Shown: positions 7,411 to 24,572 of the stretch, one piece after another
Position numbering within the stretch: position 1 is the stretch's first letter
Layout of the letters: every line of letters begins with the position of its first letter
Assembly: GCA_024640485.1 (NCBI GenBank)
Contig: JAHEEY010000001.1
Coordinates: 1-30,466 of the forward strand
DNA length: 30,466 nt
Source of the DNA: Chloroflexota bacterium
GTDB lineage: Bacteria; Chloroflexota; Anaerolineae; Promineifilales; Promineifilaceae
Direction of reading: 5' to 3'
Notes under the pieces: generated by a model
Seen by the model: only the letters and a program-made list of their open reading frames with translations
What the model was told of the DNA's origin: nothing
Databases searched by the model: none
Position numbers and translations under genes: made by a program

Positions 7411-7481
<71 letters not shown>

Positions 7482-7525
7482 ATAAACAACACCAGCAGGC
7501 TTTTCGGGGCCTGCCGATAAAAACA

Positions 7526-7599
<74 letters not shown>

Positions 7600-7624
7600 T
7601 TGTTAACCTAGCCATGATGGCTAA

Positions 7625-7697
7625 TGCCAGGACCCAGACTCGAACTGGGGACACCTGCATTTTCAGTGCAGTGCTCTACCAACTGAGCTATCCCGGC
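7625..7697 (-). tRNA. tRNA-Phe (GAA)
   Basis: Reverse complement GCCGGGATAGCTCAGTTGGTAGAGCACTGCACTGAAAATGCAGGTGTCCCCAGTTCGAGTCTGGGTCCTGGCA; CCA not encoded. Confidence 0.97.
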
Positions 7698-7794: not shown

Positions 7795-7823
7795 TCGCCA
7801 GCTTTCAACTGCTTCACTATAAT
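7795..7823 (+). promoter_or_regulatory. Putative promoter of the ABC-LytTR gene
   Basis: TCGCCA-N17-TATAAT, divergent from the tRNA promoter. Confidence 0.5.
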
Positions 7824-7928: not shown

Positions 7929-8921
7929 ATGATTGAGCTAAAACGATTGCAGAAAGTAGTCGACCACCGTACGGTTCTCGACATCGATTCAGTCTTGGTA
8001 GCTGATGGCGAAATCGCAGCTGTGGTTGGTCCTGCCGGGAGCGGCAAGCGGGCGCTGCTGGACCTGCTTATCGGACGGGCAAGTCCAACGGTTGGCGCGG
8101 TGAGTTTCGACAGCCTGAATCCGGCTGAAGACAAGGGGGCATTCAGCCAGCGCGTGGGTGTGGTCTTCGCTGAAGACACCTTGTATCGACGTCAGTCTGC
8201 CAAAGGGAACCTCCGGTTTCTCTGCCGGCTGAGAGGGCTGCCTGAGACGCGGGTTCAAGAAGTGCTGGCTCAGGTCGGGCTGGCAGATCACGGTAGTGAG
8301 AAGGCGGAGAAGCTGCCCACAGGACTTTCGCGGCGGCTGGCGTTCGGATGCGCCATTCTGCATCAACCCGACACCTTGATTGTGGTGGAGCCATTCCGCA
8401 GATGTGATGATACCAGCATCAGCTTGTTGGGCGGCTTGATGCGGCAGCTGGCCGATGAAGGCAAGAGCCTGCTTATCTTGGCGGACAACAACGCCAACCT
8501 CGTTTCCCTCTGCGACACGATCTATTCCTTGGAGCAGGGGCGTATCGTCGATGTGCGCAAGCCGGCAGAAGAGGAAGCGTCTGTCATGCCTTTCAAAATC
8601 CCGGTTCGTTTGGAGGGCAGTATCGCCCTGGTGAACCCGGCTGACATATTGTACGCGCTGACGCAAGATGGGCGCACCTATCTGCAGACCAGTGACGAGC
8701 GGCTGCCTACGCAGTACACCATGGCCGAATTGGAGGAACGGCTTTCCCGCCGCGGCTTTTTCCGGGCGCACCGAGGCTACCTGGTCAACCTCCAGCATGT
8801 CAAAGAGGTCATCCCTTATACCCGCAGCAGTTTCAGCTTGAAGCTGAATGACGCCGATGAGACCAAGATCCCCTTAAGTAAAGAAGCGGCCCGGGAGCTG
8901 CGAGATCTACTGGGTTATTAA
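7929..8921 (+). CDS. Degenerate ABC ATPase domain fused to a C-terminal LytTR DNA-binding domain
   Basis: N-terminal ABC fold with GPAGSGKR, LPTGLSRR and LIVVEP. C-terminal DILYA...LEERL...FFRAHRGYLVNLQHVKEV...IPLSK is a LytTR signature. Confidence 0.9.
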   Translation: MIELKRLQKVVDHRTVLDIDSVLVADGEIAAVVGPAGSGKRALLDLLIGRASPTVGAVSFDSLNPAEDKGAFSQRVGVVFAEDTLYRRQSAKGNLRFLCRLRGLPETRVQEVLAQVGLADHGSEKAEKLPTGLSRRLAFGCAILHQPDTLIVVEPFRRCDDTSISLLGGLMRQLADEGKSLLILADNNANLVSLCDTIYSLEQGRIVDVRKPAEEEASVMPFKIPVRLEGSIALVNPADILYALTQDGRTYLQTSDERLPTQYTMAELEERLSRRGFFRAHRGYLVNLQHVKEVIPYTRSSFSLKLNDADETKIPLSKEAARELRDLLGY

Positions 8922-9016: not shown

Positions 9017-9067
9017 ACCATTCGCCCTTGTTCTGGCACTTCTTAACCCGATCTCAGCACCTTCCGG
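9017..9067 (+). repeat. Three imperfect 9-bp direct repeats with 12-bp spacers (LytTR-type binding sites)
   Basis: ACCATTCGC (9017), ACTTCTTAA (9038), ACCTTCCGG (9059); exact 21-bp period. Confidence 0.6.
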
Positions 9068-9077
9068 CGGGTTTTTG

Positions 9078-9106
9078 ATGAAAAGCTGCCGGCTCCACTT
9101 TATACT
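9078..9106 (+). promoter_or_regulatory. Promoter of the ABC exporter operon (weak -35, strong -10)
   Basis: ATGAAA-N17-TATACT, starting 10 bp after the last direct repeat. Confidence 0.55.
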
Positions 9107-9225
9107 GTACATATGAGTGATGCGGCTAAATGCCCGGCCGAAACTACAGCCTTCGCAGCCATCTGGCGGATCTAGCCGGCAGCAGAGAATAACGAGCATT
9201 AGCCGGGTAAGATTGGGAGTCAACC

Positions 9226-9963
9226 ATGTATGCCATAGAGGTGCGAAACCTAACCCGACGATATCAGGATACCCTGGCGGTGGACGATATCTCCTTCAGT
9301 GTGGATCCGGGTGAGATCTTCGGCTTTCTGGGACCCAACGGCGCCGGGAAATCGACTACTATCAAGGTTCTCACCGGGCAGCTTCGCCCTACTTCAGGCA
9401 GCGCCACGGTAATGGGGTGTGATGTGGTCTCGGGGCGCCAGCAGCTGAAGCCTCAGATTGGAGTTGTTTTCGAGCACCAGAACATCTACGAACGAGAGTC
9501 AGCTCAAGGCAATCTGCGGTTTTACGCGCGCCTCTACGGCGTTGATAGGTCCAGGGTCCAAGCAGTGCTCTCTCAAGTGGGCTTGACCGAACGGGCCCGC
9601 GAGAAGAGCAAGAATTACTCCAACGGGATGAAGCAGCGGCTGCTGATCGCCCGGGCGCTGCTCCACCAGCCGGCGCTGCTGTTTCTCGATGAACCCACCC
9701 GGGGGCTAGACCCTAATGTGGCCCGAGAGATCCGGGCGATCATCTCTGATCTGGCGGATCTGGGGGTCACGGTGTTCTTGACCACCCATTACATGGAAGA
9801 GGCGGAGCAGTTGTGTGATCGGGTCGCTATCATTGATCAAGGGCGGGTGGTGGCGCTGGGTACGGTTGAGCAGCTCAAAGCTGAACATGCTCAAGACGGC
9901 TGTGCCAATCTGGAGGATCTATTTGTGCATCTGACCGGCCGTCATCTGGGCCAGGATCATTGA
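9226..9963 (+). CDS. ABC-2 type exporter ATP-binding protein (DrrA-like)
   Basis: GPNGAGKST, YSNGMKQR, LFLDEPTRGLD and TTHYMEEA all intact; GGGAG SD. Confidence 0.93.
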   Translation: MYAIEVRNLTRRYQDTLAVDDISFSVDPGEIFGFLGPNGAGKSTTIKVLTGQLRPTSGSATVMGCDVVSGRQQLKPQIGVVFEHQNIYERESAQGNLRFYARLYGVDRSRVQAVLSQVGLTERAREKSKNYSNGMKQRLLIARALLHQPALLFLDEPTRGLDPNVAREIRAIISDLADLGVTVFLTTHYMEEAEQLCDRVAIIDQGRVVALGTVEQLKAEHAQDGCANLEDLFVHLTGRHLGQDH

Positions 9964-10072: not shown

Positions 10073-11173
10073 ATGAACAGAAGCTTTAGGAACGCCACCA
10101 GGCGGCGGCAAATAATTTTGGCAGTGGCAGCCAAGGATATTGTGGACGCGCTGAAAAACAAGACGATCATGACCATGATGATCGGGCTGGCCTTGACAAT
10201 GCTTGCCAGTCAAGGGCTGCCCTTGTTGCTGAAGCTGAATCCGGTGACCAGGGTCGTGGTCTATGACCCAACTGGTTCCAGCTTGATGGAACAGCTGAAA
10301 GGGCGCGATCAATTTCGGCTGATCCAGGCAAAGTCTCTGGAAGAGATGGAAATAAGGATAACGGAAGCCAGTGAAGTGATGATCGGGGTCGCTTTCCCAT
10401 CTGACATCGACGAGATGGTAGAGCATGGGGATGAGCTGGTGCTGGAAAGCTATCTGGTCCATTGGTCCAGCCGTTCAAAGCGTCAGGCAGTATCCGAATT
10501 TCTCAAGGGACAGCTGCTGGGGGTGATAGATCCGCCGGCAGCGGTCCAGCTCCGTGAGAATATCCTCTATCCCCAGCCAGATGCCAGTGGGCGGCCGTTT
10601 GTGGTGTCGATGAGCCTCGTCATGGTCATCGTTATGGTGGGCGGCCTGTTGGTGCCCTACTTGATGATGGACGAGAAAGAGAGCCATACGATGGAGACGC
10701 TGTTGGTATCTCCGGCTAGCTACAGCCAAGTCGTGATGGGGAAATCAATAGCCGGTGCTTTCTACTGTATCTGCGGCGTGGCGGTGATGTTGGCTTTCTA
10801 TCATGCCATGGTTCATTCGTGGTGGCTGGCGATATTGGCGGTCATTGGCGGCGCCCTGTTCTCGGTCACCATCGGGCTGCTTATGGGCACGCTGTTCAAC
10901 AACCCCGCATCGATGAATCTGTGGTTGGGGGTGCTGCTGGTACTGCTGCTGTCGCCGGTATTCCTGGTAGATACGATGGGGCCCTTGTCGCCATCGCTAT
11001 TGAAGAGCGCCCTGCCGTACTTCCCCACAGCAGCAGTGGCAGAGATGCTGCGGGCTTCTTTTTCCAGCGGCATTTCAGCAGATATGATCTTGCGAAATGT
11101 GGTGGTGGTGGCGGTCAGCAATGCGCTGCTCTTTGTCCTGGTCGTTTGGCGGGTCCGCCAGATGGATAGGTAG
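10073..11173 (+). CDS. ABC-2 type permease (one N-terminal TM, extracytoplasmic domain, five TMs)
   Basis: AVAAKDIVDA, MMDEKESHTMETLLVSPAS...VVMGK; hydrophobic C-terminal half. Confidence 0.9.
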   Translation: MNRSFRNATRRRQIILAVAAKDIVDALKNKTIMTMMIGLALTMLASQGLPLLLKLNPVTRVVVYDPTGSSLMEQLKGRDQFRLIQAKSLEEMEIRITEASEVMIGVAFPSDIDEMVEHGDELVLESYLVHWSSRSKRQAVSEFLKGQLLGVIDPPAAVQLRENILYPQPDASGRPFVVSMSLVMVIVMVGGLLVPYLMMDEKESHTMETLLVSPASYSQVVMGKSIAGAFYCICGVAVMLAFYHAMVHSWWLAILAVIGGALFSVTIGLLMGTLFNNPASMNLWLGVLLVLLLSPVFLVDTMGPLSPSLLKSALPYFPTAAVAEMLRASFSSGISADMILRNVVVVAVSNALLFVLVVWRVRQMDR

Positions 11174-11257: not shown

Positions 11258-12346
11258 ATGAACGGTATTAGAATACTACCTATCCAGAATGCTCGAATCG
11301 TCTGGGCTATTGCCGCAAAAGATCTTGTCGATGGCTTTCAGAACCGGACCATATTGAGCGGCATCGCTACGGTGCTCTTTTTGATGTCGTTGTACCATTG
11401 GTTTCCCAAGCTCTATAAATCAGACCACATCGACGTTGTCGCTTTCGATGCCGGCGGGTCACAGCTGGCAGATGAGATGGCGGATGATCCCGGCTTCAGA
11501 TTGTGGCTGGCGAATTCCGAGCAGGAATTGCGGGCATTGATGGGAGAGGGTGATGCCGGCGAGATCGGCATCGTGATCCCGGCAGACAGTGATCAGCGGA
11601 TGAATGGCGACGAGATTATCGAGCTGCAAGGGCACGTCCTTTGGGACAGCCGGCACAACGCGGATCAGTTGGCACTGGATCTCGAACAAAGGCTGACAGA
11701 GCTGAGCGGCCATCCAGTGAGGCTGAAGCTGGGCAGTCCGGTGTACCTGCAGACCGGGGCCATGGGAACGGTGAGGTTCATCGCTGTCTCACTGGTGATT
11801 ACCACATTTTTCACCGGCGTGCTGATCATTCCCAATCTGATGTTCGAAGAAAAGGAACGAAAGACCCTGGAGACACTCCTGATATCACCGGCAAGCATCA
11901 GGCAGGTGGTATTTGGAAAGGCATTGGCGGGCACTTTGCTTTGCCTGCTGATGACCGCCGTGGCAGTTGCTTTCAGCTGGCGCTATGTAGTTAGCTGGGG
12001 CTTGACCCTGGCGGCCACAGTCAGCGGAATCCTATTCGCCGTTGCCTTGGGCCTGGCGATGGGGATCTTTCTAGAAAATAAACAGCAGGCAAACAGCTGG
12101 ATGCTCATATTGGGCAATATCCTGCTGGTGCCAGTATTCCTGTCGGCCATGGATCCGATTCTGCCCCAGGTGGTTCGGGAGATCCTTCCCTGGACGCCGA
12201 TGGTTTCGCAGGCGCTGCTGTTCCGGTACGGATTTGCCGGCAGCGCGGCGGCTGGGCAGATCTGGCCGGCGCTGTCGATCGTCTTGGTAGGGGCTTTGAT
12301 TTTGCTGGCGCTGGTCGGCTGGAAAGTGAATCGTATCAGCTGGTAG
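11258..12346 (+). CDS. ABC-2 type permease, paralog of 10073-11173
   Basis: AIAAKDLVDG, MFEEKERKTLETLLISPAS...VVFGK. Confidence 0.9.
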   Translation: MNGIRILPIQNARIVWAIAAKDLVDGFQNRTILSGIATVLFLMSLYHWFPKLYKSDHIDVVAFDAGGSQLADEMADDPGFRLWLANSEQELRALMGEGDAGEIGIVIPADSDQRMNGDEIIELQGHVLWDSRHNADQLALDLEQRLTELSGHPVRLKLGSPVYLQTGAMGTVRFIAVSLVITTFFTGVLIIPNLMFEEKERKTLETLLISPASIRQVVFGKALAGTLLCLLMTAVAVAFSWRYVVSWGLTLAATVSGILFAVALGLAMGIFLENKQQANSWMLILGNILLVPVFLSAMDPILPQVVREILPWTPMVSQALLFRYGFAGSAAAGQIWPALSIVLVGALILLALVGWKVNRISW

Positions 12347-12370: not shown

Positions 12371-13381
12371 ATGGCTTTGAAGAAGGCGTTTCATGAACTG
12401 ACCAGCCGGGGCAAAGCCGGCCGATTGCGGCTAATGGCCCGCAAGGCGCTAGAGCAATACGATTTGAAGGTCAGCCGGATCAGGTTGATCAGCAACGATA
12501 TGAACGGCATTTTCCGGATCGACACCCACGGAGGCGCCAAATACATCCTGCGGGTGGCGCTGCCAGCCGGTGGGCACAGCGTAGCTAATCTGCGCTCTGA
12601 GATGATCTGGCTGCAGGCGCTGGCGCAGGACACGCAGCTGAGCATACCGCAGCCCCTGGCTGCCCGAGATGGACGGTGGGTCATCGAGGTGGCTGTCGAG
12701 GGGGTTCCAGAGCCGAGACTCTGTATGATTTTTGGCTGGGTGCCCGGCGGAGACCTGGCCAACCATATCAGCGTGGTTAACATGACCAAACTTGGCCGGC
12801 TGTCAGCTGAGCTCCACGTTCACGCGGCCGGCTTTGAGTCCCCGCCTTCATTCGATATTCTGCGCTTTGACAAGGTGTTCCCTTTCCCTGAGCCGGTGGT
12901 GCTGTTCGACGACGCTCACAGCCATCTTTTTCCGGACGGCCGGCGGGAAATCTACCGTCAGGCGGTCGACTGGGCTCAATCGGCTATCGACGCCCTGCAG
13001 GCGGCTGGGGAGCCGATGCGGGTCATTCATGGAGATCTTCATCAGTGGAATGTGCGCTGGTATCGGGGGCTGCTCTCGCCCATTGATTTCGAGGATATGA
13101 TGTGGGGCTGGCCGGTACAAGACATCGCTGTCACTCTCTATCACTTGTGGCAGCACCCCCAGTACCCGGCGCTCCGGCAGGCGTTTCAGAGAGGATATCA
13201 GACTCACAGCCTCTGGCCCGAGCGGTACCCGGGGGAGATTGATGCATTTATTGCCGCCAGAGCCGCCGGGATGGTCAATTTTGTGATTCAGAACAACGAT
13301 CCGGCATGGGAAATCGACTTGGTTGAATATAGTGAGAAAGCTGCGCGGCAGCTGCGCGCCCTTTTAGACCAGCGTCATTGA
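12371..13381 (+). CDS. APH/homoserine-kinase-type II superfamily phosphotransferase (AmiN/YerI-like)
   Basis: YILRV, IHGDLHQWNV (catalytic loop), PIDFED (metal-binding) and DIAVTL. Confidence 0.88.
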   Translation: MALKKAFHELTSRGKAGRLRLMARKALEQYDLKVSRIRLISNDMNGIFRIDTHGGAKYILRVALPAGGHSVANLRSEMIWLQALAQDTQLSIPQPLAARDGRWVIEVAVEGVPEPRLCMIFGWVPGGDLANHISVVNMTKLGRLSAELHVHAAGFESPPSFDILRFDKVFPFPEPVVLFDDAHSHLFPDGRREIYRQAVDWAQSAIDALQAAGEPMRVIHGDLHQWNVRWYRGLLSPIDFEDMMWGWPVQDIAVTLYHLWQHPQYPALRQAFQRGYQTHSLWPERYPGEIDAFIAARAAGMVNFVIQNNDPAWEIDLVEYSEKAARQLRALLDQRH

Positions 13382-13471: not shown

Positions 13472-14608
13472 ATGATAAAGAATATACGGCGCTGCCTTCT
13501 CTTGATTTGGCTGTTGATGTTTACTATCGGCTGCCAGGAGGCGGCTAAGGAGCCGCCCGACTATTGGCCGACGGACGGCTGGCGGACAACTTCCCCGGAA
13601 GAACAGGGAGTCAGGTCAGAGATTCTGGCCGATATGCTGGCGCTGGTCCAGGCGGAAGCGTATGCTATTGACAGCATCATGGTCGTGCGCAACGGCTATG
13701 TGGTGTTGGATACCACCATCTACCCATTCCTCCAGGGTTCCAGACACATTATCTATTCCTGCACCAAAAGCGTGGTATCCGCTTTGGTAGGTATCGCCAT
13801 CGACCAAGGCGCTATCGACGGCGTGCAGCAGCCGGTGACGGCCTTCTTCCCAGAGCTGGCCATCGAGAATTTTGACTCCCAGAAGCAGGAGATGACCCTT
13901 GAAGATCTGCTGACCATGCGCAGCGGGCTGGCTTGCCGCGATTCTTACCTGTACCGGTGGCAGGGGCTGCGTGAAATGGAGCAGAGTGAAGATTGGGTGG
14001 CCCACGTCCTGAGTCTGCCGATGGTAGAGGCCCCAGGCAGCCGCTTTGAATACTGCAACGGCGCCTCCTTCTTGCTGTCAGCCATTCTTCAGGAAACCAC
14101 AGACCAGACCGCTTTGGCGTATGCTCAAGAAAACCTGTTCGGCCCGCTAGGGATCGAAGATGTGGACTGGAAAGCCAATCCTCAGGGGATAAATATCGGC
14201 TGGAGTGATCTGTACATGAGGCCCGACGACATGGCCAAAATCGGATTACTCTATCTTCATGAAGGGCAGTGGGACGGCGAACAGATTATCTCGGCCGGCT
14301 GGATTCGGGATTCTACCCGATCCTATGTTGACGCCACCCTGCAGGATGGGTATGGTTATCAATGGTGGGTGAGCGACAGCGGTGTCTATATGGCCTTGGG
14401 CTATGCCGGACAGTTCATTTTCGTTGTGCCGCAGAAAGGGATGGTGGTGGTGTTCACCAGCGATTTGCCAGAGGATCAGTTTGCTGTCCCCCTGGGGCTG
14501 CTCAGCCAATATATTATCCCGGCAGCTGATTCACCCTCTCCCTTAGCGGCTGATCCGCAGAGCCAGGAAGCGCTTCAGACGCTGACTGTCTCATTGAGGG
14601 AGCCGTAG
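13472..14608 (+). CDS. Beta-lactamase-family serine hydrolase, probable lipoprotein
   Basis: Signal peptide ending FTIG-C; SCTK (SxxK), LLTMRSG, FEYCN (YxN), GYGYQWW and ALGYAGQ. Confidence 0.9.
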   Translation: MIKNIRRCLLLIWLLMFTIGCQEAAKEPPDYWPTDGWRTTSPEEQGVRSEILADMLALVQAEAYAIDSIMVVRNGYVVLDTTIYPFLQGSRHIIYSCTKSVVSALVGIAIDQGAIDGVQQPVTAFFPELAIENFDSQKQEMTLEDLLTMRSGLACRDSYLYRWQGLREMEQSEDWVAHVLSLPMVEAPGSRFEYCNGASFLLSAILQETTDQTALAYAQENLFGPLGIEDVDWKANPQGINIGWSDLYMRPDDMAKIGLLYLHEGQWDGEQIISAGWIRDSTRSYVDATLQDGYGYQWWVSDSGVYMALGYAGQFIFVVPQKGMVVVFTSDLPEDQFAVPLGLLSQYIIPAADSPSPLAADPQSQEALQTLTVSLREP

Positions 14609-14782: not shown

Positions 14783-15703
14783 ATGCATACAGTAGAGGTT
14801 TCACATCTTGCCAAGCGGTTTGGTGATATCGAAGCGGTGGTGGATGTCTCCTTTGCCATCGAACCCGGCGAGATATTTGGCATGCTAGGACCTAACGGCG
14901 CCGGGAAAACCACCACGATTCGGATGATGATGGACATTTTTAAGCCCGATGCCGGCAGCATCAGTGTGTTAGGCGGCCCGCTAGATCTACCGAAAAAGCG
15001 GCGGATCGGCTACCTGCCGGAAGAAAGGGGGCTCTATAAAGATCAGAAGCTCGGCGCTACATTGACTTACCTGGCGATGCTGAAAGGGCTGGATCAGAAG
15101 ACCGCTGAAGGTCGTTTGGGACAATGGCTGGAACGTTTCGACTTGACTGATTACCGTCAGAAGAAGGTAGAAGAGCTGAGCAAGGGGATGCAGCAGAAGG
15201 CCCAGATTATCGCCACTTTGCTGCATGAGCCCGATTTGATCGTCATCGATGAGCCGTTTTCGGGGCTTGATCCCGTCAATACCCGGTTGGTCAAACGCAT
15301 CTTTGAAGAGCAAAGGGATGCTGGCAGGTCCATCATTATGTCCACTCATCAGATGTATCAGGTCGAGGCTCTGTGCAACCGGATTGTGCTGATCAATGAA
15401 GGACGCTCTGTGCTTTACGGCCGGGTGGAAGAGATCAAGCGCAATTTCGCCGGCAATGCGGTGGAGCTGAAAGGGCAGGGGGATTTCACTGAAATCCCTG
15501 GCGTTCTGGAGACACGGCAGCTGAATGGCAGCTGGCATCTGGCCCTGGAAATCGGGGCAGATCCTCAGGATGTGTTTCGTGCTTTGGCCAACCGTGACGG
15601 GGTAAAGATCGATCGTTTCGAGCTGGCGGAGCCATCACTCGATGATATCTTCATCAGCGTCGTGCAAGACGGCAATCACGGATCGGAGGCGGGGCATGTC
15701 TAA
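14783..15703 (+). CDS. ABC exporter ATP-binding protein (NatA/YhaQ-like with C-terminal DUF4162-like domain)
   Basis: GPNGAGKTT, GYLPEERGLY, LSKGMQQK, IVIDEPFSGLDP, MSTH and EPSLDDIF. Confidence 0.93.
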   Translation: MHTVEVSHLAKRFGDIEAVVDVSFAIEPGEIFGMLGPNGAGKTTTIRMMMDIFKPDAGSISVLGGPLDLPKKRRIGYLPEERGLYKDQKLGATLTYLAMLKGLDQKTAEGRLGQWLERFDLTDYRQKKVEELSKGMQQKAQIIATLLHEPDLIVIDEPFSGLDPVNTRLVKRIFEEQRDAGRSIIMSTHQMYQVEALCNRIVLINEGRSVLYGRVEEIKRNFAGNAVELKGQGDFTEIPGVLETRQLNGSWHLALEIGADPQDVFRALANRDGVKIDRFELAEPSLDDIFISVVQDGNHGSEAGHV

Positions 15704-16901
15704 CTTCTGGTTGGTGGCCAAGCATGAATACCGCAATGTGGTCATGCGCCGGGGCTTTGTGATCGGTACCGCCGCCGTCCCTTTGGGGCTGGCGCTGTTG
15801 ATTGGTATGGTCATTCTGGTTGAGAGATCGAGCGAAAACCGGCTGCCGATAGGATATGTGGATCAGGTTGGATTCCTGGACGAGAATGCGCAGCCGGCTG
15901 CCGCCGATGACGAAGAGCGGATTGAAATACAGGCGTTCGCGGATGAAGCCAGCGGTGTCCAAGCGCTGGAGCAGGAGGAGATCCAGGTACTATTTGTCTT
16001 CCCTCCCGATTACCCGGAAACGGTAAAAACAGAGCTGTACTACTTGGAGAAGCCCCCCAGCAATGACGTCTGGCGCGAATTCGACGATTTCGTACGGCTC
16101 AATCTGGTGCGCGGACTGCCAGAGGATGTGGCCTACCGCATGCTGGAAGGGACTAATGTGGTTGTCTATGACACTGCCAGTGACCGGGAGTTTAGTGAAA
16201 GCAGTATTATCAATGTTATCTTGCCCATGGTAGCCAGTTTCTTCTTCTTCTTCGCCACCATGTCGGCTGCCGGCTACCTGTTGGGGGTGATCGCCACCGA
16301 AAAAGAGAACCGGATGATGGAAACGCTGCTGACATCGCTGACACCGGGACAGCTGATCGGGGGCAAGGCGCTTGGATTATTATCGGCGACGCTAACCCAA
16401 CTAACCGTCCATATCGTTACCGCGCTGCTGGCCCTGAAATTTGCTTCACCGGTCATCGAAGCGTTGCAGAAAGCGGTGATCCCCTGGGAATATCTGGGAC
16501 TGTTAGCCCTGTTTTTCTTCCCGGCATACACGCTGGTTGCGGCGGTGATGGTTGCCATCGGCAGCGCCGCTGTTGAGATGCAGCAGGCACAGCAAGTCTC
16601 CGGCATCGTCAACCTCTTTTTCATCGCGCCGTTCTTTTTGGTCGCGCTGCTCTTTTCCAACCCGAATCACCCGATCATTGTCTTTATGACCTTATTCCCG
16701 ACTACCGCCTTCCTGACGGTTTCACTCCGTTGGGGGCTGGGGTCTATCCCGACGTGGCAGTTAGGCTTGAGCTGGGTCATTCTGGTCGGATCGACCGCGT
16801 TTATGATTTGGGCGGCTGCCCGGATCTTTCGGGCTGGTATGCTGCGCTACGGTCAGCCGCTGACCTTTAAGGGCGCCCTGGCATCGCTTCGCAACCAATA
16901 G
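15696..16901 (+). CDS. ABC-2 type permease (NatB/YhaP-like)
   Basis: ATG 15696 overlaps the ATPase 3' end, with GGAGG SD; VIATEKENRMMETLLTS...LIGGK. Confidence 0.9.
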   Translation: MSNFWLVAKHEYRNVVMRRGFVIGTAAVPLGLALLIGMVILVERSSENRLPIGYVDQVGFLDENAQPAAADDEERIEIQAFADEASGVQALEQEEIQVLFVFPPDYPETVKTELYYLEKPPSNDVWREFDDFVRLNLVRGLPEDVAYRMLEGTNVVVYDTASDREFSESSIINVILPMVASFFFFFATMSAAGYLLGVIATEKENRMMETLLTSLTPGQLIGGKALGLLSATLTQLTVHIVTALLALKFASPVIEALQKAVIPWEYLGLLALFFFPAYTLVAAVMVAIGSAAVEMQQAQQVSGIVNLFFIAPFFLVALLFSNPNHPIIVFMTLFPTTAFLTVSLRWGLGSIPTWQLGLSWVILVGSTAFMIWAAARIFRAGMLRYGQPLTFKGALASLRNQ

Positions 16902-16902
16902 G

Positions 16903-18174
16903 ATGGATAGCATGAGAACGATTTGGTTGGTCATAAAACATGAGATTTATACGACGCTTAGAAAGCGCTCTTTCTGGGTGATGACGTTTATCATGCCGGC
17001 GATTCTGCTGGCCTTTAATACCTATGCGGTGATTCAGGACAGCGATATTGGCGGATCTGAGGAGAGTGAAGCAGAGTCAGGCCCTGCCAGTTTGCCTGCT
17101 ATTGGCCTTGTAGATGACGCTGGCTTGCTCAAAGAGATGCCGGAAAGCTTTCCCCAGGACCTGTTTACCCCCTTCGCGGACGAAGCAGCTGCTATGTCGG
17201 CGTTGGAAGCCGGTGATCTGGAACAGATAGTCCACGTCCCTGCTGATTACTTAGCGACTGGCGAGATCCTGGTCTATGATCAAGAGTTCAAGCTCATGAG
17301 CAGCGGTGACGATATGGGTATCGCTTTTGGCAGCAGCAGTGACTGGGTGCTGCCCTATCTGATCAACTACAACTTGAGCGGGGACGAGTCGCTAACCGTA
17401 AAGCTGCGCAATCCTACCCCAGGCAGCATTGCCGAGCATCATGTGGTCCGGCCTACGGCAGATGCGATTGAGGGGGATGAGCGGGTGATGGCGGAGATCA
17501 TCGCCAGGGCGATGCCTTACATCTACTACTTCATCTTGATTATCAGCAGCGGCTATATGCTGACCAGCGTCACGGCCGAGAAGGAAAACCGCACAGTAGA
17601 AGTGCTCCTGCTCAGCCTTAATCCCCGCCAGCTGATGCTGGGCAAGATCATCGGGTTGACCGTTGTCGTCCTGGTGCAGATGTCCGTCTGGTTTGCCGGC
17701 GGCGCGCTGACAGTGGGGCAGAGCTCCAGCTTGTTGAATATCTCGGCCTTTGATTTTCCGCCAGGATTCTTTATTTGGGCGACGCTCTTTATGCTCGGAG
17801 GCTATCTGCTCTATGCCTCGGTGATGGCTGCGGTTGGGGCAATCGCCAATACGGCCCGCGAAGGCAATCAAATCACCTGGATTCTGATTCTGCCGCTGAT
17901 GCCCACATTGATGTTTGCCGACAAATTCTTGACTGAACCTAACGGAACGCTTTCCATGGTGCTCAGTATGTTTCCCTTCAGCGCGCCCAGTGCTATGGTG
18001 ACCCGATTGGCCGTCGCTGATGTGCCCTTGTGGCAGCTGGGAGTCAGCCTCGGAGGATTGGCGCTGACGGCGTATCTGATGATCATGCTGGCCAGCCGTT
18101 TCTTCCGTCCGCACCACCTGCTGTCAAAATCCAAATTCAACTGGCGCCGATTTGCTGCCGCCCTGCGTGGTTAG
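16903..18174 (+). CDS. ABC-2 type permease (NatB/YhaP-like), second subunit
   Basis: SVTAEKENRTVEVLLLS...LMLGKI and PFSAPSAMVTR. Confidence 0.9.
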   Translation: MDSMRTIWLVIKHEIYTTLRKRSFWVMTFIMPAILLAFNTYAVIQDSDIGGSEESEAESGPASLPAIGLVDDAGLLKEMPESFPQDLFTPFADEAAAMSALEAGDLEQIVHVPADYLATGEILVYDQEFKLMSSGDDMGIAFGSSSDWVLPYLINYNLSGDESLTVKLRNPTPGSIAEHHVVRPTADAIEGDERVMAEIIARAMPYIYYFILIISSGYMLTSVTAEKENRTVEVLLLSLNPRQLMLGKIIGLTVVVLVQMSVWFAGGALTVGQSSSLLNISAFDFPPGFFIWATLFMLGGYLLYASVMAAVGAIANTAREGNQITWILILPLMPTLMFADKFLTEPNGTLSMVLSMFPFSAPSAMVTRLAVADVPLWQLGVSLGGLALTAYLMIMLASRFFRPHHLLSKSKFNWRRFAAALRG

Positions 18175-20276: not shown

Positions 20277-23024
20277 CTAGTCACCAGTCGCAGGTGCTTG
20301 AGAGCTCTGGTGTACTTCCAGTTCATCCCAGCCCATAATCATTGATTTGATGCCAGCCATCGGCTTGTGGCCGGTGGTGGTCAAATAAACGTGACCAACG
20401 ATGAAGGTGGCAAACAGCCAGGCGATAATCGTGTGGAACGGCGCCAGGAACGGCAGTCCGCCCAGCTTGGCGGCCACTTCCGGCCACCGCTGCACGCCCC
20501 ACATGAAGATGCCGGTCAGCATCTGCAGCGGCAGCAGCACATTGAGGATGCTGAAGTAGGTGATCTGCTGCAGCGGATTCAGTTTTCTGTCGACGGTCTT
20601 GTCGAAGGGATGTTCATCCCCTTTGAAAATACCGCGGATATAGAAGGTTGCCTGGGTGATCGTCTGGCTGAAGAAACCTCGCGGCTGCGGCAGATATTGG
20701 CGAATTTCGCCGCTGGCCAAATGGTAGAAGACTGCCAGGGCAGCATTGACTACCAGAACGGCTGCCAGGACATTGTGTACCTGCACCATATATTTGAAGC
20801 TGAAGCCGCCGAACAAGTGCGGTTTGTGAATGACCAAGCCGGTGACGATCAGGATCAAGATGGCTGTTGTCTGCAGCCAATGCCACAGCCGCTCGTAGAC
20901 GCCGTACATGTAGACTTCCTGCAGTTCCGGCTCGTGGACTGGGCGTCGACGGGCGGCGAAGAAGCGCAGTCCGCCGTGGGTGATCACCCCGACGATGGTC
21001 GCCAGGAAGATGAAGAGCCCGGCCCGGTCGATCAAGCTGACATTGTTATGCCCCAGGACATATAGGTCATCCGCCGCCGTCTGCGGCTGGTAATACAGTT
21101 TGCCGTCATCAGTGGTGACTAGCTCGCCGCTGAACGCGGTGTTGCTGTCGGTGACGAAGGTCGGCATCACCCCGCCTGGCATCTGGTTGGCCAGCAGCAT
21201 CGGCTGGGCGATCCGCGACTCTTCAGTGTGGCAGGTATCGCAATCTTTGGTGGCCCATTGTCCGTTGGTGACATCGTGGTTGATGCTGTACGGTTGGACC
21301 TCACCAATGATACGGGGATTTTCAAGGCCCAGGGCCTGCAGCCGTGACTGGATCAGCGCTTCCTTCTCAGCCGTGTCGATCCGCAGCTCTTCCGCATCGA
21401 GCTTGTTGTTCCCGTCGGCATCGAACGCGGCCAGGATATCGGACTGATAGCTGTCGCCGTCGAACCAGGCAGCCTGCAGGTCCAGCAATCTTACCGGTTG
21501 GGCCGGTTCGCCATAAACCCAAAACCACGAGCTGACCAGGTTGTAGGGAGCCAGCAGTTGGCCGCCGTCATTTCCCTGGCGGCTCAACAAGACTGGCGTG
21601 TAGCCATTGATCAGAGAGTTGCTGCTGATTTCGCCATCGACGCCCCGGAGGGTCGCGGCGGGAGAGCCGTCCAGCTGTAAAACGGTCCAGTCCACATCTT
21701 GGCGAGTTGGCGCGTAGATGAAGGGGATGTGGCACGATTCACAGCTAAGGCTGCTGACATGCTTATCTTTGTAGGGCAGCCAATCGTGGGTCGCATCGAC
21801 ACTGTGGCACGATTCGCAGCGGCGCAAAGTGTTGTCGAGATCCGGCGCGACGGTCCCTTGGGCGCTCTGCCCCTTGGCAAATTGGTGCAGCGGTCGCTGC
21901 AGATATTCACCGATGTCGATCCGTCGGGGGTCGAAGATGAGGTGGCCGGGTTTGGACTCAGACAAGTCCTGGTAATAGACAGGATTGTTGAGGGAATAAT
22001 GGCAGTCGGTACAGGCTACTACCCGTTCGGTATGTATGTCCCAAGAACGGGAGAGCGATTCTTTGCCCGAAAGGTTCAGCCCAGAGTCTGAGAGGCGTTG
22101 GGGCGAGATGACTTGACCGGTGGTTCCAGTAGTCCACTCAGCCAATGATGCCTGGTCCAGAGTCAGTGGTGTCGATAGATCCATGTGGACAACGCCGTGG
22201 CATTGGCCGCAATTCTCGTTGGTGGGATCCTGAATCGTGACGAATTCGACAGTCAGGTAGCCGTCACTGTCAAACGCATCAGCATTCCAATTCCAATTCC
22301 CGTCTTCCTGGGAGATGATGCCGGTGCCCAACAGGGTGGCGCTGCTGGCCCATTTGAATGAACCAGCCTGCAGCGCTGCGATGCGGGCATCATTGTTGGG
22401 GTTTGACAGATGGCAGAGGAAGCAGTTCATTTCCACAGTGCCGGAGTCCTGCCAGTTCCAGGCTGCGGCTTCGCCGGTTTCCGGATCAATGGTGGAGGTT
22501 TCTACATTGCCAGCATCTGCAGCTAGTGAAGCCAGCGGGAACCCGCTGCGGCTGAATACCGCTGGGCCGCCGCCGACATGTCGGGCGCCGAACAGCTTGA
22601 TCCAGTCAGCGGTAGTCAGATCGACGGTGGCGCTCCCCCGAGGAGTTAGGGTGCGATAGGTCAAGGGATTCCATTTGCCGAAGTAACCAGGGCTGGTGTC
22701 CCAAGGGAGGCCATTTTCAACTGTGCCGTTATCGCTGTAATCGTCCAGGCCCACGGAAGTGTGGAAACTGTGTTCGGCGATGAATTCGGTGTCGTGACAG
22801 CTGCCGCAGGTTTGCATCGTAGAGACCGGCTTGCCGCTCTCTAGCACGCTTTCGCCAGCATCATCGAGGAGCTGAAAAGTAGGATGCAGCGGCGAGATCG
22901 GGCTCGTTTCTTGAGCGGACGCCGGCTGTCTGATGAGTATCAAAAGCGCGACCAGCAATACACCCGACAGGATTGTGTAAAGCAGCAGTCTGGGTTTTGA
23001 ATGATTATGGCTGATTGTGTACAT
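20277..23024 (-). CDS. Multiheme c-type cytochrome (7 CxxCH, OTR-paralogous) fused to C-terminal cytochrome b (PhsC/Ni-hydrogenase cyt b type)
   Basis: Signal peptide ending PASA-QE; CGSCH, CFLCH, CGQCH, CTDCH, CESCH, CESCH, CDTCH; then TM helices with ERLWHW, VQVHN, KLNPLQ and FH...VGHVY. Start placed at ATG 23024. Confidence 0.9.
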   Translation of the reverse strand: MYTISHNHSKPRLLLYTILSGVLLVALLILIRQPASAQETSPISPLHPTFQLLDDAGESVLESGKPVSTMQTCGSCHDTEFIAEHSFHTSVGLDDYSDNGTVENGLPWDTSPGYFGKWNPLTYRTLTPRGSATVDLTTADWIKLFGARHVGGGPAVFSRSGFPLASLAADAGNVETSTIDPETGEAAAWNWQDSGTVEMNCFLCHLSNPNNDARIAALQAGSFKWASSATLLGTGIISQEDGNWNWNADAFDSDGYLTVEFVTIQDPTNENCGQCHGVVHMDLSTPLTLDQASLAEWTTGTTGQVISPQRLSDSGLNLSGKESLSRSWDIHTERVVACTDCHYSLNNPVYYQDLSESKPGHLIFDPRRIDIGEYLQRPLHQFAKGQSAQGTVAPDLDNTLRRCESCHSVDATHDWLPYKDKHVSSLSCESCHIPFIYAPTRQDVDWTVLQLDGSPAATLRGVDGEISSNSLINGYTPVLLSRQGNDGGQLLAPYNLVSSWFWVYGEPAQPVRLLDLQAAWFDGDSYQSDILAAFDADGNNKLDAEELRIDTAEKEALIQSRLQALGLENPRIIGEVQPYSINHDVTNGQWATKDCDTCHTEESRIAQPMLLANQMPGGVMPTFVTDSNTAFSGELVTTDDGKLYYQPQTAADDLYVLGHNNVSLIDRAGLFIFLATIVGVITHGGLRFFAARRRPVHEPELQEVYMYGVYERLWHWLQTTAILILIVTGLVIHKPHLFGGFSFKYMVQVHNVLAAVLVVNAALAVFYHLASGEIRQYLPQPRGFFSQTITQATFYIRGIFKGDEHPFDKTVDRKLNPLQQITYFSILNVLLPLQMLTGIFMWGVQRWPEVAAKLGGLPFLAPFHTIIAWLFATFIVGHVYLTTTGHKPMAGIKSMIMGWDELEVHQSSQAPATGD

Positions 23025-23129
23025 AGTTAGTCCCGTGGCCAGGCATTGACTTGGATGGATTCTAGGCTCTGCGAGCCGGCCCATTCCAGATCAATTGCCT
23101 GCCGCTGATTATTACCTTTTGGACATTCC

Positions 23130-24572
23130 TTATCGTGAACCCAGGAAGGTCTCGTCTCGACCACCCCAACGTAGGGGGTCACCATAGTAGCCCAGCGCTT
23201 CCCAATCAATGCGGCCGGTGTCGCCATGGCATTCCTGGCACTGCAGGGCGTTCTCTTTGGGCTGGACCATGTGGCTTAGGTTCCAGTACATCTCTGTGGG
23301 AGCGAATCCGTATTCGCCGCTGTAAGCCATGCCGGAAATTTCCGATCCCAGGGTTACGGCTTTGTCCCAATCGAAATCAGTCCAATAGCCACCTTCGCCC
23401 ACCGTTTTCGGCTGCAGGATGTAGTTGTACTGACTATCGTAAATCTGTGTGGCCCGGTGAATCTTGAAAGGCCAGATCTTGGCTGTCGGGTCGGTGATGT
23501 CACCCAGGGGCATGTTGAGGACCGTAGAGACGGTCGGATCAATGAGATCGCCTAAAATGTACCGGTCAGCCTTCCCATTGAACCAGGCGTACTCCGGCGT
23601 GAAGCCGCGCTCGTAGACGAAGGCGCCTTTGATTTTAAGATAGACATGGGGATCTTCCGGCAAATCTTGCCCAGCAGCGGACCAATCCCATTCCATCTTG
23701 GTTGGCTGACGAACCGCACCTTCCGGCACATGGCATGTTTGGCAGGCGACCGTATCCACATGGGCGGTGATGCGTTCGTCTTCATGCAGCGATTCGTCGT
23801 GGCACTCGGTGCAAGCCAATACATTGCTGTCATCGGCGCTGACCGAGATACTGTGACCTTTGACCAGGTGATCTTCGGTCTTGTGACAGTCAGTGCAGAC
23901 GAAATCATATCGTCCCATATGAACGTCGATATCCTCGGAAGGGAAATAGAGGCTCTCGTCCAGATCGCCGTGTTTGACGGCATTGCCGCCTCCGCCGTTG
24001 AAGTGGCAGCTGCCGCAGTTCTGGCGGGTGGGTGTGCCTACGCTCTGGGCAGCCGCCAGGAGGTCAACCCCTTCTGCCGGCAGCCCCTTGGCTGCTTTCG
24101 TATAAGTGCCAGTATCGGCGTGGCAGACCAGACAGTCGACGTTCCCTTCATCAGAGAAATCGAAGTTCGCATCTTCCCAGCCATAACCGGCGTGACACCG
24201 GGTACATCCAGGCCAGTTGCCCTGAATGCCGATGCAGAAATTGTTGATCTGATTTTTCTTGCCGATAGTGACCGGTTCATCGCGGCCTGGCAGCATGACC
24301 GGTTCGCTCTCCCAGGTGTAATGAACGGTCTCTGCCACCTGATGGGCGGCGTCTTCATGACATGCCAGACAGGCGGCGGTAACTTCCGGACCAGTTTCGA
24401 AGGTTCCCGACAGGAGGTCGGTATGATCTGTGTGCGGGGCCCGTACGGGGACGCCAGCCCAAGGGTCCTGCTCTGTCTCCGGTTCCCCGGAAGCGAATAG
24501 TGCAATTGGGATAATCACCAGTGACAAGGTGACTATCAAACCAATAACCCAGATGTATTTGAAATCTTTCAT
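23130..24572 (-). CDS. otr: Octaheme tetrathionate reductase family c-type cytochrome
   Basis: Eight CxxCH (CLACH, CTRCH, CLVCH, CGSCH, CTDCH, CTECH, CQTCH, CQECH), the family motif GKKNQINNFCIG, KIWPFKIH and LSHMV; N-terminal hydrophobic signal or anchor. Confidence 0.88.
   Translation of the reverse strand: MKDFKYIWVIGLIVTLSLVIIPIALFASGEPETEQDPWAGVPVRAPHTDHTDLLSGTFETGPEVTAACLACHEDAAHQVAETVHYTWESEPVMLPGRDEPVTIGKKNQINNFCIGIQGNWPGCTRCHAGYGWEDANFDFSDEGNVDCLVCHADTGTYTKAAKGLPAEGVDLLAAAQSVGTPTRQNCGSCHFNGGGGNAVKHGDLDESLYFPSEDIDVHMGRYDFVCTDCHKTEDHLVKGHSISVSADDSNVLACTECHDESLHEDERITAHVDTVACQTCHVPEGAVRQPTKMEWDWSAAGQDLPEDPHVYLKIKGAFVYERGFTPEYAWFNGKADRYILGDLIDPTVSTVLNMPLGDITDPTAKIWPFKIHRATQIYDSQYNYILQPKTVGEGGYWTDFDWDKAVTLGSEISGMAYSGEYGFAPTEMYWNLSHMVQPKENALQCQECHGDTGRIDWEALGYYGDPLRWGGRDETFLGSR

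Follow-up and report, generated by a model that had tools for sequence, protein, structure and literature searches.

A conserved family of receiver-less LytTR regulators with a degenerate ABC ATPase domain, encoded beside ABC-2 exporters in Chloroflexota and Bacillota

The stretch of DNA analysed here (the window) comprises 30,466 nucleotides (nt) of contig JAHEEY010000001.1 from a Chloroflexota bacterium of the family Promineifilaceae. An open reading frame (ORF) on its forward strand, at 7929-8921 with the stop codon included, encodes a 330-amino acid (aa) protein in which a degenerate ABC nucleotide-binding domain (pseudo-NBD) is fused to a LytTR DNA-binding domain. Downstream and on the same strand lie the genes of an ABC-2 exporter: a 245-aa ATPase of the DrrA/ABC-2 type with all canonical catalytic motifs (9226-9963) and two permeases of 366 aa (10073-11173) and 362 aa (11258-12346), which both match ABC2_membrane_3 and are 34% identical to each other. 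The fusion belongs to a real, conserved and apparently unstudied class of regulators, in which LytTR one-component regulation would take its input from a pseudo-ATPase.

Three parts can be distinguished in the fusion protein: the pseudo-NBD (residues 1-212; 7929-8564), a complete ABC ATPase fold with degenerate motifs; a flexible acidic linker (about residues 213-225; 8565-8603), visible as a drop of the predicted local distance difference test (pLDDT) in the structural model; and the LytTR domain (residues 226-330; 8604-8918). Pfam recognises ABC_tran (PF00005) at residues 22-156 with 60 bits (E 4.8e-16), a weak score for that family against the 118 of the neighbouring ATPase, and LytTR (PF04397) at residues 231-328 with 83.7 bits (cut-off 22.6) over profile positions 2-97 of 98. 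The conserved LytTR core (FFR-x-HR-x-Y-LVN) is present as FFRAHRGYLVNL and is kept across the family, of which the LytTR domain is the best conserved portion; its closest solved sequence is 3d6w (E 2.4e-12). An AlphaFold2 model computed from 97 family sequences (mean pLDDT 93.2) resolves two domains with a flexible connection at residues 211-225, with pLDDT 93-98 over residues 1-210, about 65 at residues 211-220 and below 50 at 218-220. Both the RecA-like core and the helical subdomain of an NBD are found in the N-terminus, and a Foldseek search superposed the pseudo-NBD model on LptB with a template modelling score of 0.84-0.86 (normalised to LptB) and a root-mean-square deviation of 2.2-2.7 Å over about 224 columns. 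Since the model superposes in this way, the ATPase fold is predicted to be whole and its chemistry alone to be lost.

LytTR domains usually take their input from a receiver domain or from a separate membrane inhibitor. A preliminary description of this DNA had named the protein a LytTR regulator with neither receiver nor kinase, which holds: Pfam gave no Response_reg match in the fusion, whose N-terminus is an NBD instead, and there is no histidine kinase among its flanking genes, which are a tRNA cluster and the ABC genes. No reviewed protein with the same two-domain fold was returned by a structure search of Swiss-Prot, where the matches were ordinary ATPases aligned over the NBD only.

The pseudo-NBD and the downstream ATPase are 34% identical in a gap-free alignment of 206 residues (BLASTP, E 7e-39), so that the catalytic positions of the fusion can be read directly. 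Walker A (GPAGSGKRA, 8028-8054) keeps Lys40 and has Arg41 in place of Ser/Thr. The Q-loop (FAEDTLY) has Asp83 (8175-8177) in place of Gln, the signature reads LPTGLSRRL (8313-8339) where the downstream ATPase has YSNGMKQRL, and Walker B (TLIVVEP) has Val153 in place of Asp beside a retained catalytic Glu154 (8385-8390). In the D-loop (RRCD) Asp160 is kept, and in the H-switch (LILADNN) Asp186 (8484-8486) replaces His. Walker A, Walker B, Q-loop and H-switch, by which an active ABC ATPase is recognised, thus all depart from the active form, and the N-terminal domain is predicted to be an NBD unable to hydrolyse ATP. The motifs reported earlier as broken (GSGKR, LPTGL, IVVE and LADN) are each correct by sequence and by alignment; the list is refined here by the survival of the Walker A Lys and of the catalytic Glu.

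In a word-indexed family search 2,389 proteins reached E <= 1e-5, and the best 120 of these 2,389 matches are all 328-357 aa long with both domains present. An exhaustive search of 50%-identity representatives extended the family by dozens of full-length proteins that are less similar (26-48% identity). The family spans Chloroflexota and Bacillota and dozens of 50%-identity clusters, and the full-length architecture of about 330 aa is kept in more than 100 clusters at 62-88% identity in the two phyla.

A joint alignment of 95 fusion proteins and 81 adjacently encoded ATPases was used to follow each catalytic position. The H-switch His is found in none of the fusions and in every adjacent ATPase, while the Q-loop Gln is again missing from all 95 fusions (Asp in 77) and present in 66/81 of their neighbours. 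The Walker B Asp is kept by 25 fusions against 81/81 adjacent ATPases, and the Walker A Ser/Thr by 37 against 78/81. The catalytic Glu occurs in all 81 adjacent NBDs; among the fusions the Walker A Lys is retained in 68/95, and Glu or Asp at the catalytic position is retained in the clade of the window. Several of the substituted positions are themselves conserved in the family: the Q-loop position is a conserved Asp (Asp83) that does not drift, and the same holds for the EPF motif and for Cys159-Asp160. Whether homologs share the degeneracy had been proposed earlier as a check; with no fusion keeping the H-switch His or the Q-loop Gln, the degeneracy reads as a property of the family and not as an accident.

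The degree of loss differs between lineages. In the fusions of Ktedonobacteria (loci L090-L113), Walker A is intact (GxxGSGK, then T or S) and the Walker B Asp is present, with Gln at the position of the catalytic Glu (LLLLDQP), a natural E-to-Q change. E-to-Q mutants trap NBDs as ATP-bound dimers, and these fusions probably bind ATP without hydrolysing it. Fusions of Anaerolineae, including that of the window, keep the Lys and have lost both Mg ligands, and in distant members, including those of Bacillota, the P-loop is unrecognisable. Because the P-loop is gone in the distant members, nucleotide binding is predicted not to be an input shared by the whole family.

The genetic context was examined at 80 loci from species-representative genomes, nearly all labelled Chloroflexota and one Gammaproteobacteria. 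A strict search found an ATPase and/or an ABC-2 permease within 5 kb of the fusion in 73 of them. Six of the remaining seven loci reach the contig end on the relevant side, and the seventh (L108) has a divergent permease 411 nt away, found by a laxer ORF search. Three gene orders occur overall. In Anaerolineae the regulator, the ATPase and one to four permease ORFs follow one another in the same direction. Most loci of Ktedonobacteria, among them those of the cultured Ktedonospora formicarum, Ktedonobacter robiniae and Thermogemmatispora aurantia, have regulator and exporter genes that diverge over a 180-480-nt spacer. A permease-first order is seen in a Leptofilum/Ardenticatenaceae group. The four distant loci sampled, at least two of them from Bacillota (the named Tenuibacillus multivorans and Alkalicoccus urumqiensis), are all linked, in the order regulator, ATPase and single ABC-2 permease. 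The preliminary description had made its proposal depend on homologs being linked to ABC-2 exporters, and linkage is what was found, both in the 73/80 and in the 4/4 distant loci. The distribution of the fusion is patchy: it occurs in 7 of 41 genomes sampled around that of the window, and a genome of the same genus is without it.

The genome of the window contains a second such module (L119; contig C477, 1-3974), in which the fusion gene is cut by the contig start. Its fusion is 60% identical to that of the window over residues 75-329, its ATPase is 65% identical, and two ABC-2 permeases follow; its spacer carries CCATTC, CCATTG and CCGCTG at 21- and 20-nt steps. In many relatives a Gly-rich membrane protein of 57-81 aa is encoded between regulator and ATPase, past the regulated promoter (L118 6281-6484, L004 8458-8634, and L035, L045, L065, L041, L064, L072 and L088), with ...DNPGLLGVGPAIG... 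as a typical segment. It could be an accessory subunit, an inhibitor or a substrate precursor, the second by likeness to those of the LytTR regulatory systems (LRS) discussed below. No membrane ORF is found in the 304-nt spacer between regulator and ATPase in the window.

The origin of the pseudo-NBD was addressed with a maximum-likelihood tree in which 33 pseudo-NBDs were set alongside 32 adjacent and 15 unlinked NBDs. Pseudo-NBDs of Chloroflexota and Bacillota fall together on one side of a branch (Shimodaira-Hasegawa-like approximate likelihood ratio test, SH-aLRT, 88), in a clade placed within the DrrA/ABC-2-type ATPases, and their branches are 2-3 times longer than those of the adjacent NBDs. 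In Chloroflexota the tree of pseudo-NBDs mirrors that of the adjacent ATPases, with recurring sister pairs (window/L004 and L102/L105), which indicates that the module is inherited as a unit. The downstream ATPase is the top non-self match of the pseudo-NBD in its own genome, and third codon positions match at 19 of the 70 residues identical between the two. A recent duplication of, or gene conversion from, the adjacent ATPase was considered and is ruled out by the single clade of two phyla together with the 19/70 third positions. As the pseudo-NBDs form one clade and recent gene conversion is excluded, the split between pseudo-NBD and adjacent NBD appears to be ancient and family-wide. The earlier statement that the domain is paralogous to the downstream ATPase therefore stands in the broad sense, as the top match confirms, but not in the sense of a local duplication.

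The ATPase of the window is 55-74% identical to the fusion-linked ATPases of most other Chloroflexota loci and 39-40% identical to those of the Leptofilum/Ardenticatenaceae group (L078-L082, L085, L087 and L032). In this group the regulator falls within the Anaerolineae clade, whereas the neighbouring ATPase belongs to another lineage, and both the D-loop Asp and the signature Gly have disappeared from the regulators. The case counts as one evolutionary event; it suggests, as a hint, a changed contact between NBDs.

The regulator has a promoter-like site of its own at 7795-7823 (forward strand; TCGCCA, 17 nt, TATAAT), which matches the consensus at 10 of 12 positions and lies about 105 nt before the ATG. 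The regulator is immediately preceded by three tRNA genes (Cys-GCA, Gly-GCC and Phe-GAA) on the reverse strand (7411-7697), with a near-consensus promoter-like site at 7757-7729 (TTGACA, 17 nt, TAGAAT). These tRNAs alone pass in Rfam, which reveals no RNA element in the 5' leader or the spacer.

Spacers between regulator and ATPase measure 130-770 nt and contain a promoter of their own. In 61 such spacers compared with shuffles, CCATTCA occurs in 38 (in the shuffles, at most 8), and a block TTTTTGTTGCA ... TATACTG is common. Matches to C[CG][AG]TT[CT] are spaced by 21 nt 31 times, by 20 nt 8 times and by 41-42 nt 10 times (0.08 for each distance in the shuffled sequences), and their orientation is biased (138 versus 42); related loci are not independent and these counts overstate the significance, though many genera contribute. 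The usual layout consists of three repeats with the consensus GC(G/T)CC(A/G)TTC(A/G), the third of which lies 18 nt before a TTGCAA-like -35 element followed by 17 nt and TATACT. A hairpin (GCGCC, 4-nt loop, GGCGC, then a T-run) encloses the third repeat in its loop at many loci and may also end the regulator transcript. A matrix built on the repeats matches 44/47 regulator-ATPase spacers, a figure that is partly circular because the matrix derives from the same spacers, and 8/47 regions upstream of regulator genes; the contrast between the two stands.

In the window, three candidate half-sites on the forward strand follow an exact 21-nt period and line up with the CCATTC/CCGTTC triple found in relatives: R1 (9017-9025, ACCATTCGC), which is strong at 10.5 bits on the family matrix, R2 (9038-9046), which scores poorly, and R3 (9059-9067, ACCTTCCGG), which is weak on the matrix and conserved with the near relative L118. 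They precede the predicted exporter promoter (9078-9106, forward strand), composed of a weak -35 element ATGAAA (9078-9083), 17 nt and the -10 element TATACT (9101-9106), which aligns in register with the TTGCAA, 17 nt, TATACT(G) of relatives. A -35 element TTGATG at 9075-9080 was dropped, since its spacer would be 20 nt and that of ATGAAA is 17 nt. A simple repeat search of the two spacers of the window gave nothing useful, and the repeats become visible only against relatives. Likewise, a search of the genome of the window with the phased-triple matrix was not discriminating: the C477 module ranks eighth and the site of the window falls outside the top matches owing to the degeneracy of R2 and R3. 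Also present is a perfect inverted repeat of 10 nt with arms 79 nt apart, one in the promoter spacer (9085-9094, GCTGCCGGCT) and the other in the 5' leader of the ATPase gene (9174-9183, AGCCGGCAGC); it has no Rfam match.

LytTR activators such as AgrA and ComE bind repeats that lie before a weak -35 element, at about -50 to -95. As the phased repeats of the fusion family sit on the exporter promoter, the exporter is likely the regulatory target, and as their geometry is that of LytTR activators, the fusion is read as an activator of the exporter operon. We hold this assignment, from comparison of promoters and genes, with good confidence: the protein is very probably a LytTR activator of the adjacent exporter.

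How the activator receives its input is a separate matter. Our preferred reading, put forward tentatively and with somewhat less than even confidence as a whole, is that the fusion is a one-component, receiver-less LytTR factor whose input domain is a non-hydrolysing NBD, and that it would act in three steps. Firstly, the LytTR domain would bind, along one side of the DNA helix, the three 21-nt-spaced direct repeats that immediately precede the weak -35 element, and would activate the adjacent operon of an intact ABC-2-type ATPase and two permeases. Secondly, the helical subdomain and signature helix of the pseudo-NBD would dock reversibly on the exporter, either on the coupling helices of the permeases in the place of the real NBD or on the open face of the real NBD itself. 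Thirdly, docking would keep the regulator at the membrane, and busy transporters would be unable to hold it, so that transcription of the exporter would track exporter load without a kinase. The pseudo-NBD may thus be a decoy of the motor domain of the exporter, sitting on idle permeases or open NBDs and freed when the transporters are occupied, a picture to which we give rather less than an even chance. The lineages would then represent stages of a change from enzyme to sensor, from Ktedonobacteria (apparently ATP-binding and dead for hydrolysis) through Anaerolineae (without Mg ligands) to the Bacillota type (without a P-loop).

Input through docking on the exporter, the second and third of these steps, is plausible and supported circumstantially by linkage, co-diversification, retained constraint and own-locus similarity; we regard it as possible and somewhat doubtful. 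NBDs have as binding partners nucleotide, a partner NBD and the coupling helices of permeases. Since nucleotide binding has been lost in most lineages and the protein contacts remain, docking, as put forward in the preliminary description, is the most economical idea. Column entropies of the pseudo-NBD relative to the real ATPase in 49 Anaerolineae pairs show where constraint has been relaxed: most at the H-loop strand (+1.54), the C-terminal segment (+1.14), Walker A (+1.00) and Walker B/D-loop (+0.84), and little at the signature helix (+0.38) and the helical subdomain (+0.27, the least). In working ABC proteins these last two elements are turned towards the coupling helices of the permease and towards the partner NBD. 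Furthermore, in Anaerolineae the pseudo-NBD resembles the ATPase of its own locus slightly more than those of other loci (0.430 versus 0.409, +0.021), an excess that is limited to residues 76-127, that amounts to +0.019 in a non-redundant subset (p about 0.004) and that is kept at the protein level rather than via gene conversion. Docking would also fit the logic of other receiver-less LytTR systems, as these are held inactive at the membrane (PMC6193735).

Several observations weigh against this reading. The own-locus signal is tiny, appears in only 11/19 non-redundant loci and is absent in 13 loci of Ktedonobacteria. The near-invariant Gly27, Gly56, Arg136, Pro155 and Asp160 are fold determinants of every NBD and by themselves are no argument for an interface. 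At the Leptofilum/Ardenticatenaceae loci, regulators of the Anaerolineae clade stand beside an NBD of another lineage, so that any contact would not be strictly partner-specific. At the window itself R1 alone fits the matrix, and the sites are assigned by positional homology. In a relative 64% identical (P0086; L005/L006, 8019-10820), a 933-aa MalT-like regulator of the LuxR family lies directly downstream in place of the ATPase; the contig of L005 ends about 600 bp later, which leaves room for an exporter further on.

The strongest competitor is a switch that never touches the exporter, in which the pseudo-NBD is an oligomerisation module or binds a small molecule or nucleotide, and a cytoplasmic ligand, possibly the exporter substrate or ATP, joins two or three LytTR domains on the repeats. 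Most efflux regulators do sense their substrate directly, and a promoter apart from the exporter genes is what would be expected of a soluble regulator. The intact Walker A, the Walker B Asp and especially the natural E-to-Q change make such a switch a real possibility at least in Ktedonobacteria, and the retained Lys and acidic catalytic residue of the clade of the window, together with the steady Asp at the Q-loop position, point the same way. However, ATP would not be a shared signal when the P-loop is obliterated in distant members and the Mg ligands are gone in the clade of the window, and we know of no substrate pocket in NBDs. A helical subdomain held under constraint beside a relaxed catalytic core is also left unexplained, and we consider a transporter-independent input unlikely, although less so than the alternatives that follow.

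The fusion could instead be a stoichiometric subunit of the exporter, forming a heterodimeric motor with the intact NBD, one permease to each, with DNA binding as a secondary function. One NBD gene beside two distinct permease genes would suit such a pump, and in the clade of the window the dead Walker and H motifs combined with a kept signature Gly and D-loop Asp recall the degenerate half of heterodimeric exporters (PMC7756269). The fusion and NBD genes are nevertheless separated by a long spacer with its own promoter, to which many relatives add the terminator-like hairpin, and in Ktedonobacteria they diverge, an arrangement unusual for stoichiometric subunits. The single permease gene at each of the four distant loci implies a symmetric permease pair, and one NBD gene with two permease paralogs is in any case common in ordinary ABC-2 systems. 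Separate promoters and divergent arrangements thus argue against a fixed pump subunit, which we judge improbable. Finally, that the N-terminal domain is a functionless, decaying remnant and the protein a constitutive LytTR factor or a pseudogene, as degenerate motifs and long branches might suggest, is hardly credible in view of the architecture maintained across two phyla, the high pLDDT over residues 1-210 and the conservation of Asp83, the EPF motif and Cys159-Asp160.

The other genes of the window were also inspected. An APH-family phosphotransferase gene (12371-13381, forward strand) starts 24 nt past the second permease and may be co-transcribed with the exporter, outside the conserved module: no such gene is found at the 80 related loci, and in an 88%-identical relative a gene occupies the matching position. 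A serine hydrolase of beta-lactamase fold follows downstream of the exporter (13472-14608, forward strand); like the phosphotransferase, it is unconserved in the wider family. A second ABC-2 exporter, also present in L004, is composed of a DrrA-like ATPase with a DrrA1-3_C domain (14783-15703) and two permeases (15642-16901 and 16903-18174), all on the forward strand. Upstream of the regulator, the gene order common to the window, L118 and L004 includes a methyltransferase; L118 additionally shares ASCH and ABC ATPase genes. On the reverse strand, 20277-24572 encodes a protein of 935 aa whose C-terminal domain is cytochrome b561 (Ni_hydr_CYTB) and an adjoining 480-aa multihaem cytochrome c (Cytochrome_cB, Cytochrome_C7 and MtrC-like matches), a pair that is a possible extracellular or membrane electron-transfer module.

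Proteins of this family carry the database labels 'LytTR family transcriptional regulator DNA-binding domain-containing protein' or 'ABC-2 type transport system ATP-binding protein', the second of which is often applied and is misleading for fusion proteins. The preliminary description had stated that ABC-LytTR fusions are annotated and uncharacterised in mechanism, which agrees with a full-text literature search that found no published study of them, nor any earlier description or test of a transcription factor that uses an ABC pseudo-ATPase as its input domain. Cultured carriers of the fusion are at hand in Ktedonobacter robiniae, Ktedonospora formicarum, Thermogemmatispora aurantia, Tenuibacillus multivorans and Alkalicoccus urumqiensis.

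The nearest known relatives in logic are the LRS of Streptococcus mutans and related bacteria, such as HdrRM, BrsRM, the ABC-linked SMU_433/434, SMU_1070c/1069c and lmo0984-0987, whose regulators are small, LytTR-only and autoregulating, with a separate membrane inhibitor encoded just downstream (PMC6193735). Like them, the fusion is a LytTR regulator without a receiver domain or kinase, some LRS operons are likewise conserved beside ABC transporter genes (PMC6193735), and membrane sequestration is the presumed mode of control of LRS regulators, as is proposed for the fusion. Unlike them, the fusion carries a 212-residue pseudo-NBD, the next gene in the window is an ATPase rather than a dedicated membrane inhibitor, and the repeats of the family sit on the exporter promoter, with matches ahead of the regulator gene at just 8 of the 47 co-directional loci. 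With neither a dedicated inhibitor nor clear autoregulation in the window, the fusion is no classical LRS; autoregulation is possible in Ktedonobacteria, where the regulator and exporter genes share a divergent spacer.

The fusion is no response regulator either, since it lacks a receiver domain. AgrA, ComE, BlpR, PlnC/D and AlgR are LytTR response regulators that act on phased direct repeats upstream of a weak -35 element, and NatR, of the NatKR pair, controls the natAB ABC-2 operon of Bacillus subtilis. The fusion family shares with the AgrA/ComE class the DNA-binding domain and direct repeats about 21 nt apart that abut a poor -35 element, and with NatKR-NatAB an ABC-2 exporter as the proposed target. 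In contrast to that class, it lacks a receiver (REC) domain as well as a phospho-acceptor Asp, no histidine kinase is encoded beside it, and its input domain would be a pseudo-ATPase.

Non-hydrolysing NBDs with altered Walker B and H-loop residues and a preserved NBD structure are known from heterodimeric ABC exporters (PMC7756269, PMC7544095). The NBD of the fusion is similarly predicted to be non-hydrolysing yet structurally an NBD; the degenerate NBDs of these exporters, however, stay transporter subunits with transmembrane domains, whereas that of the fusion is joined to a DNA-binding domain and separately transcribed. The activity state of an ABC transporter has been proposed to set the transcription of transporter-related genes by protein-protein contact in MalK-MalT of E. 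coli and in BceAB-BceRS of Bacillus. In those systems a real ATPase or permease touches a separate regulator or kinase, whereas the fusion itself bears a copy of the ATPase domain that would make the contact. If the pseudo-NBD reads the state of the exporter, it would be a clear case of a pseudoenzyme turned sensor and a compact third way of sensing flux beside MalK-MalT and BceAB-BceS.

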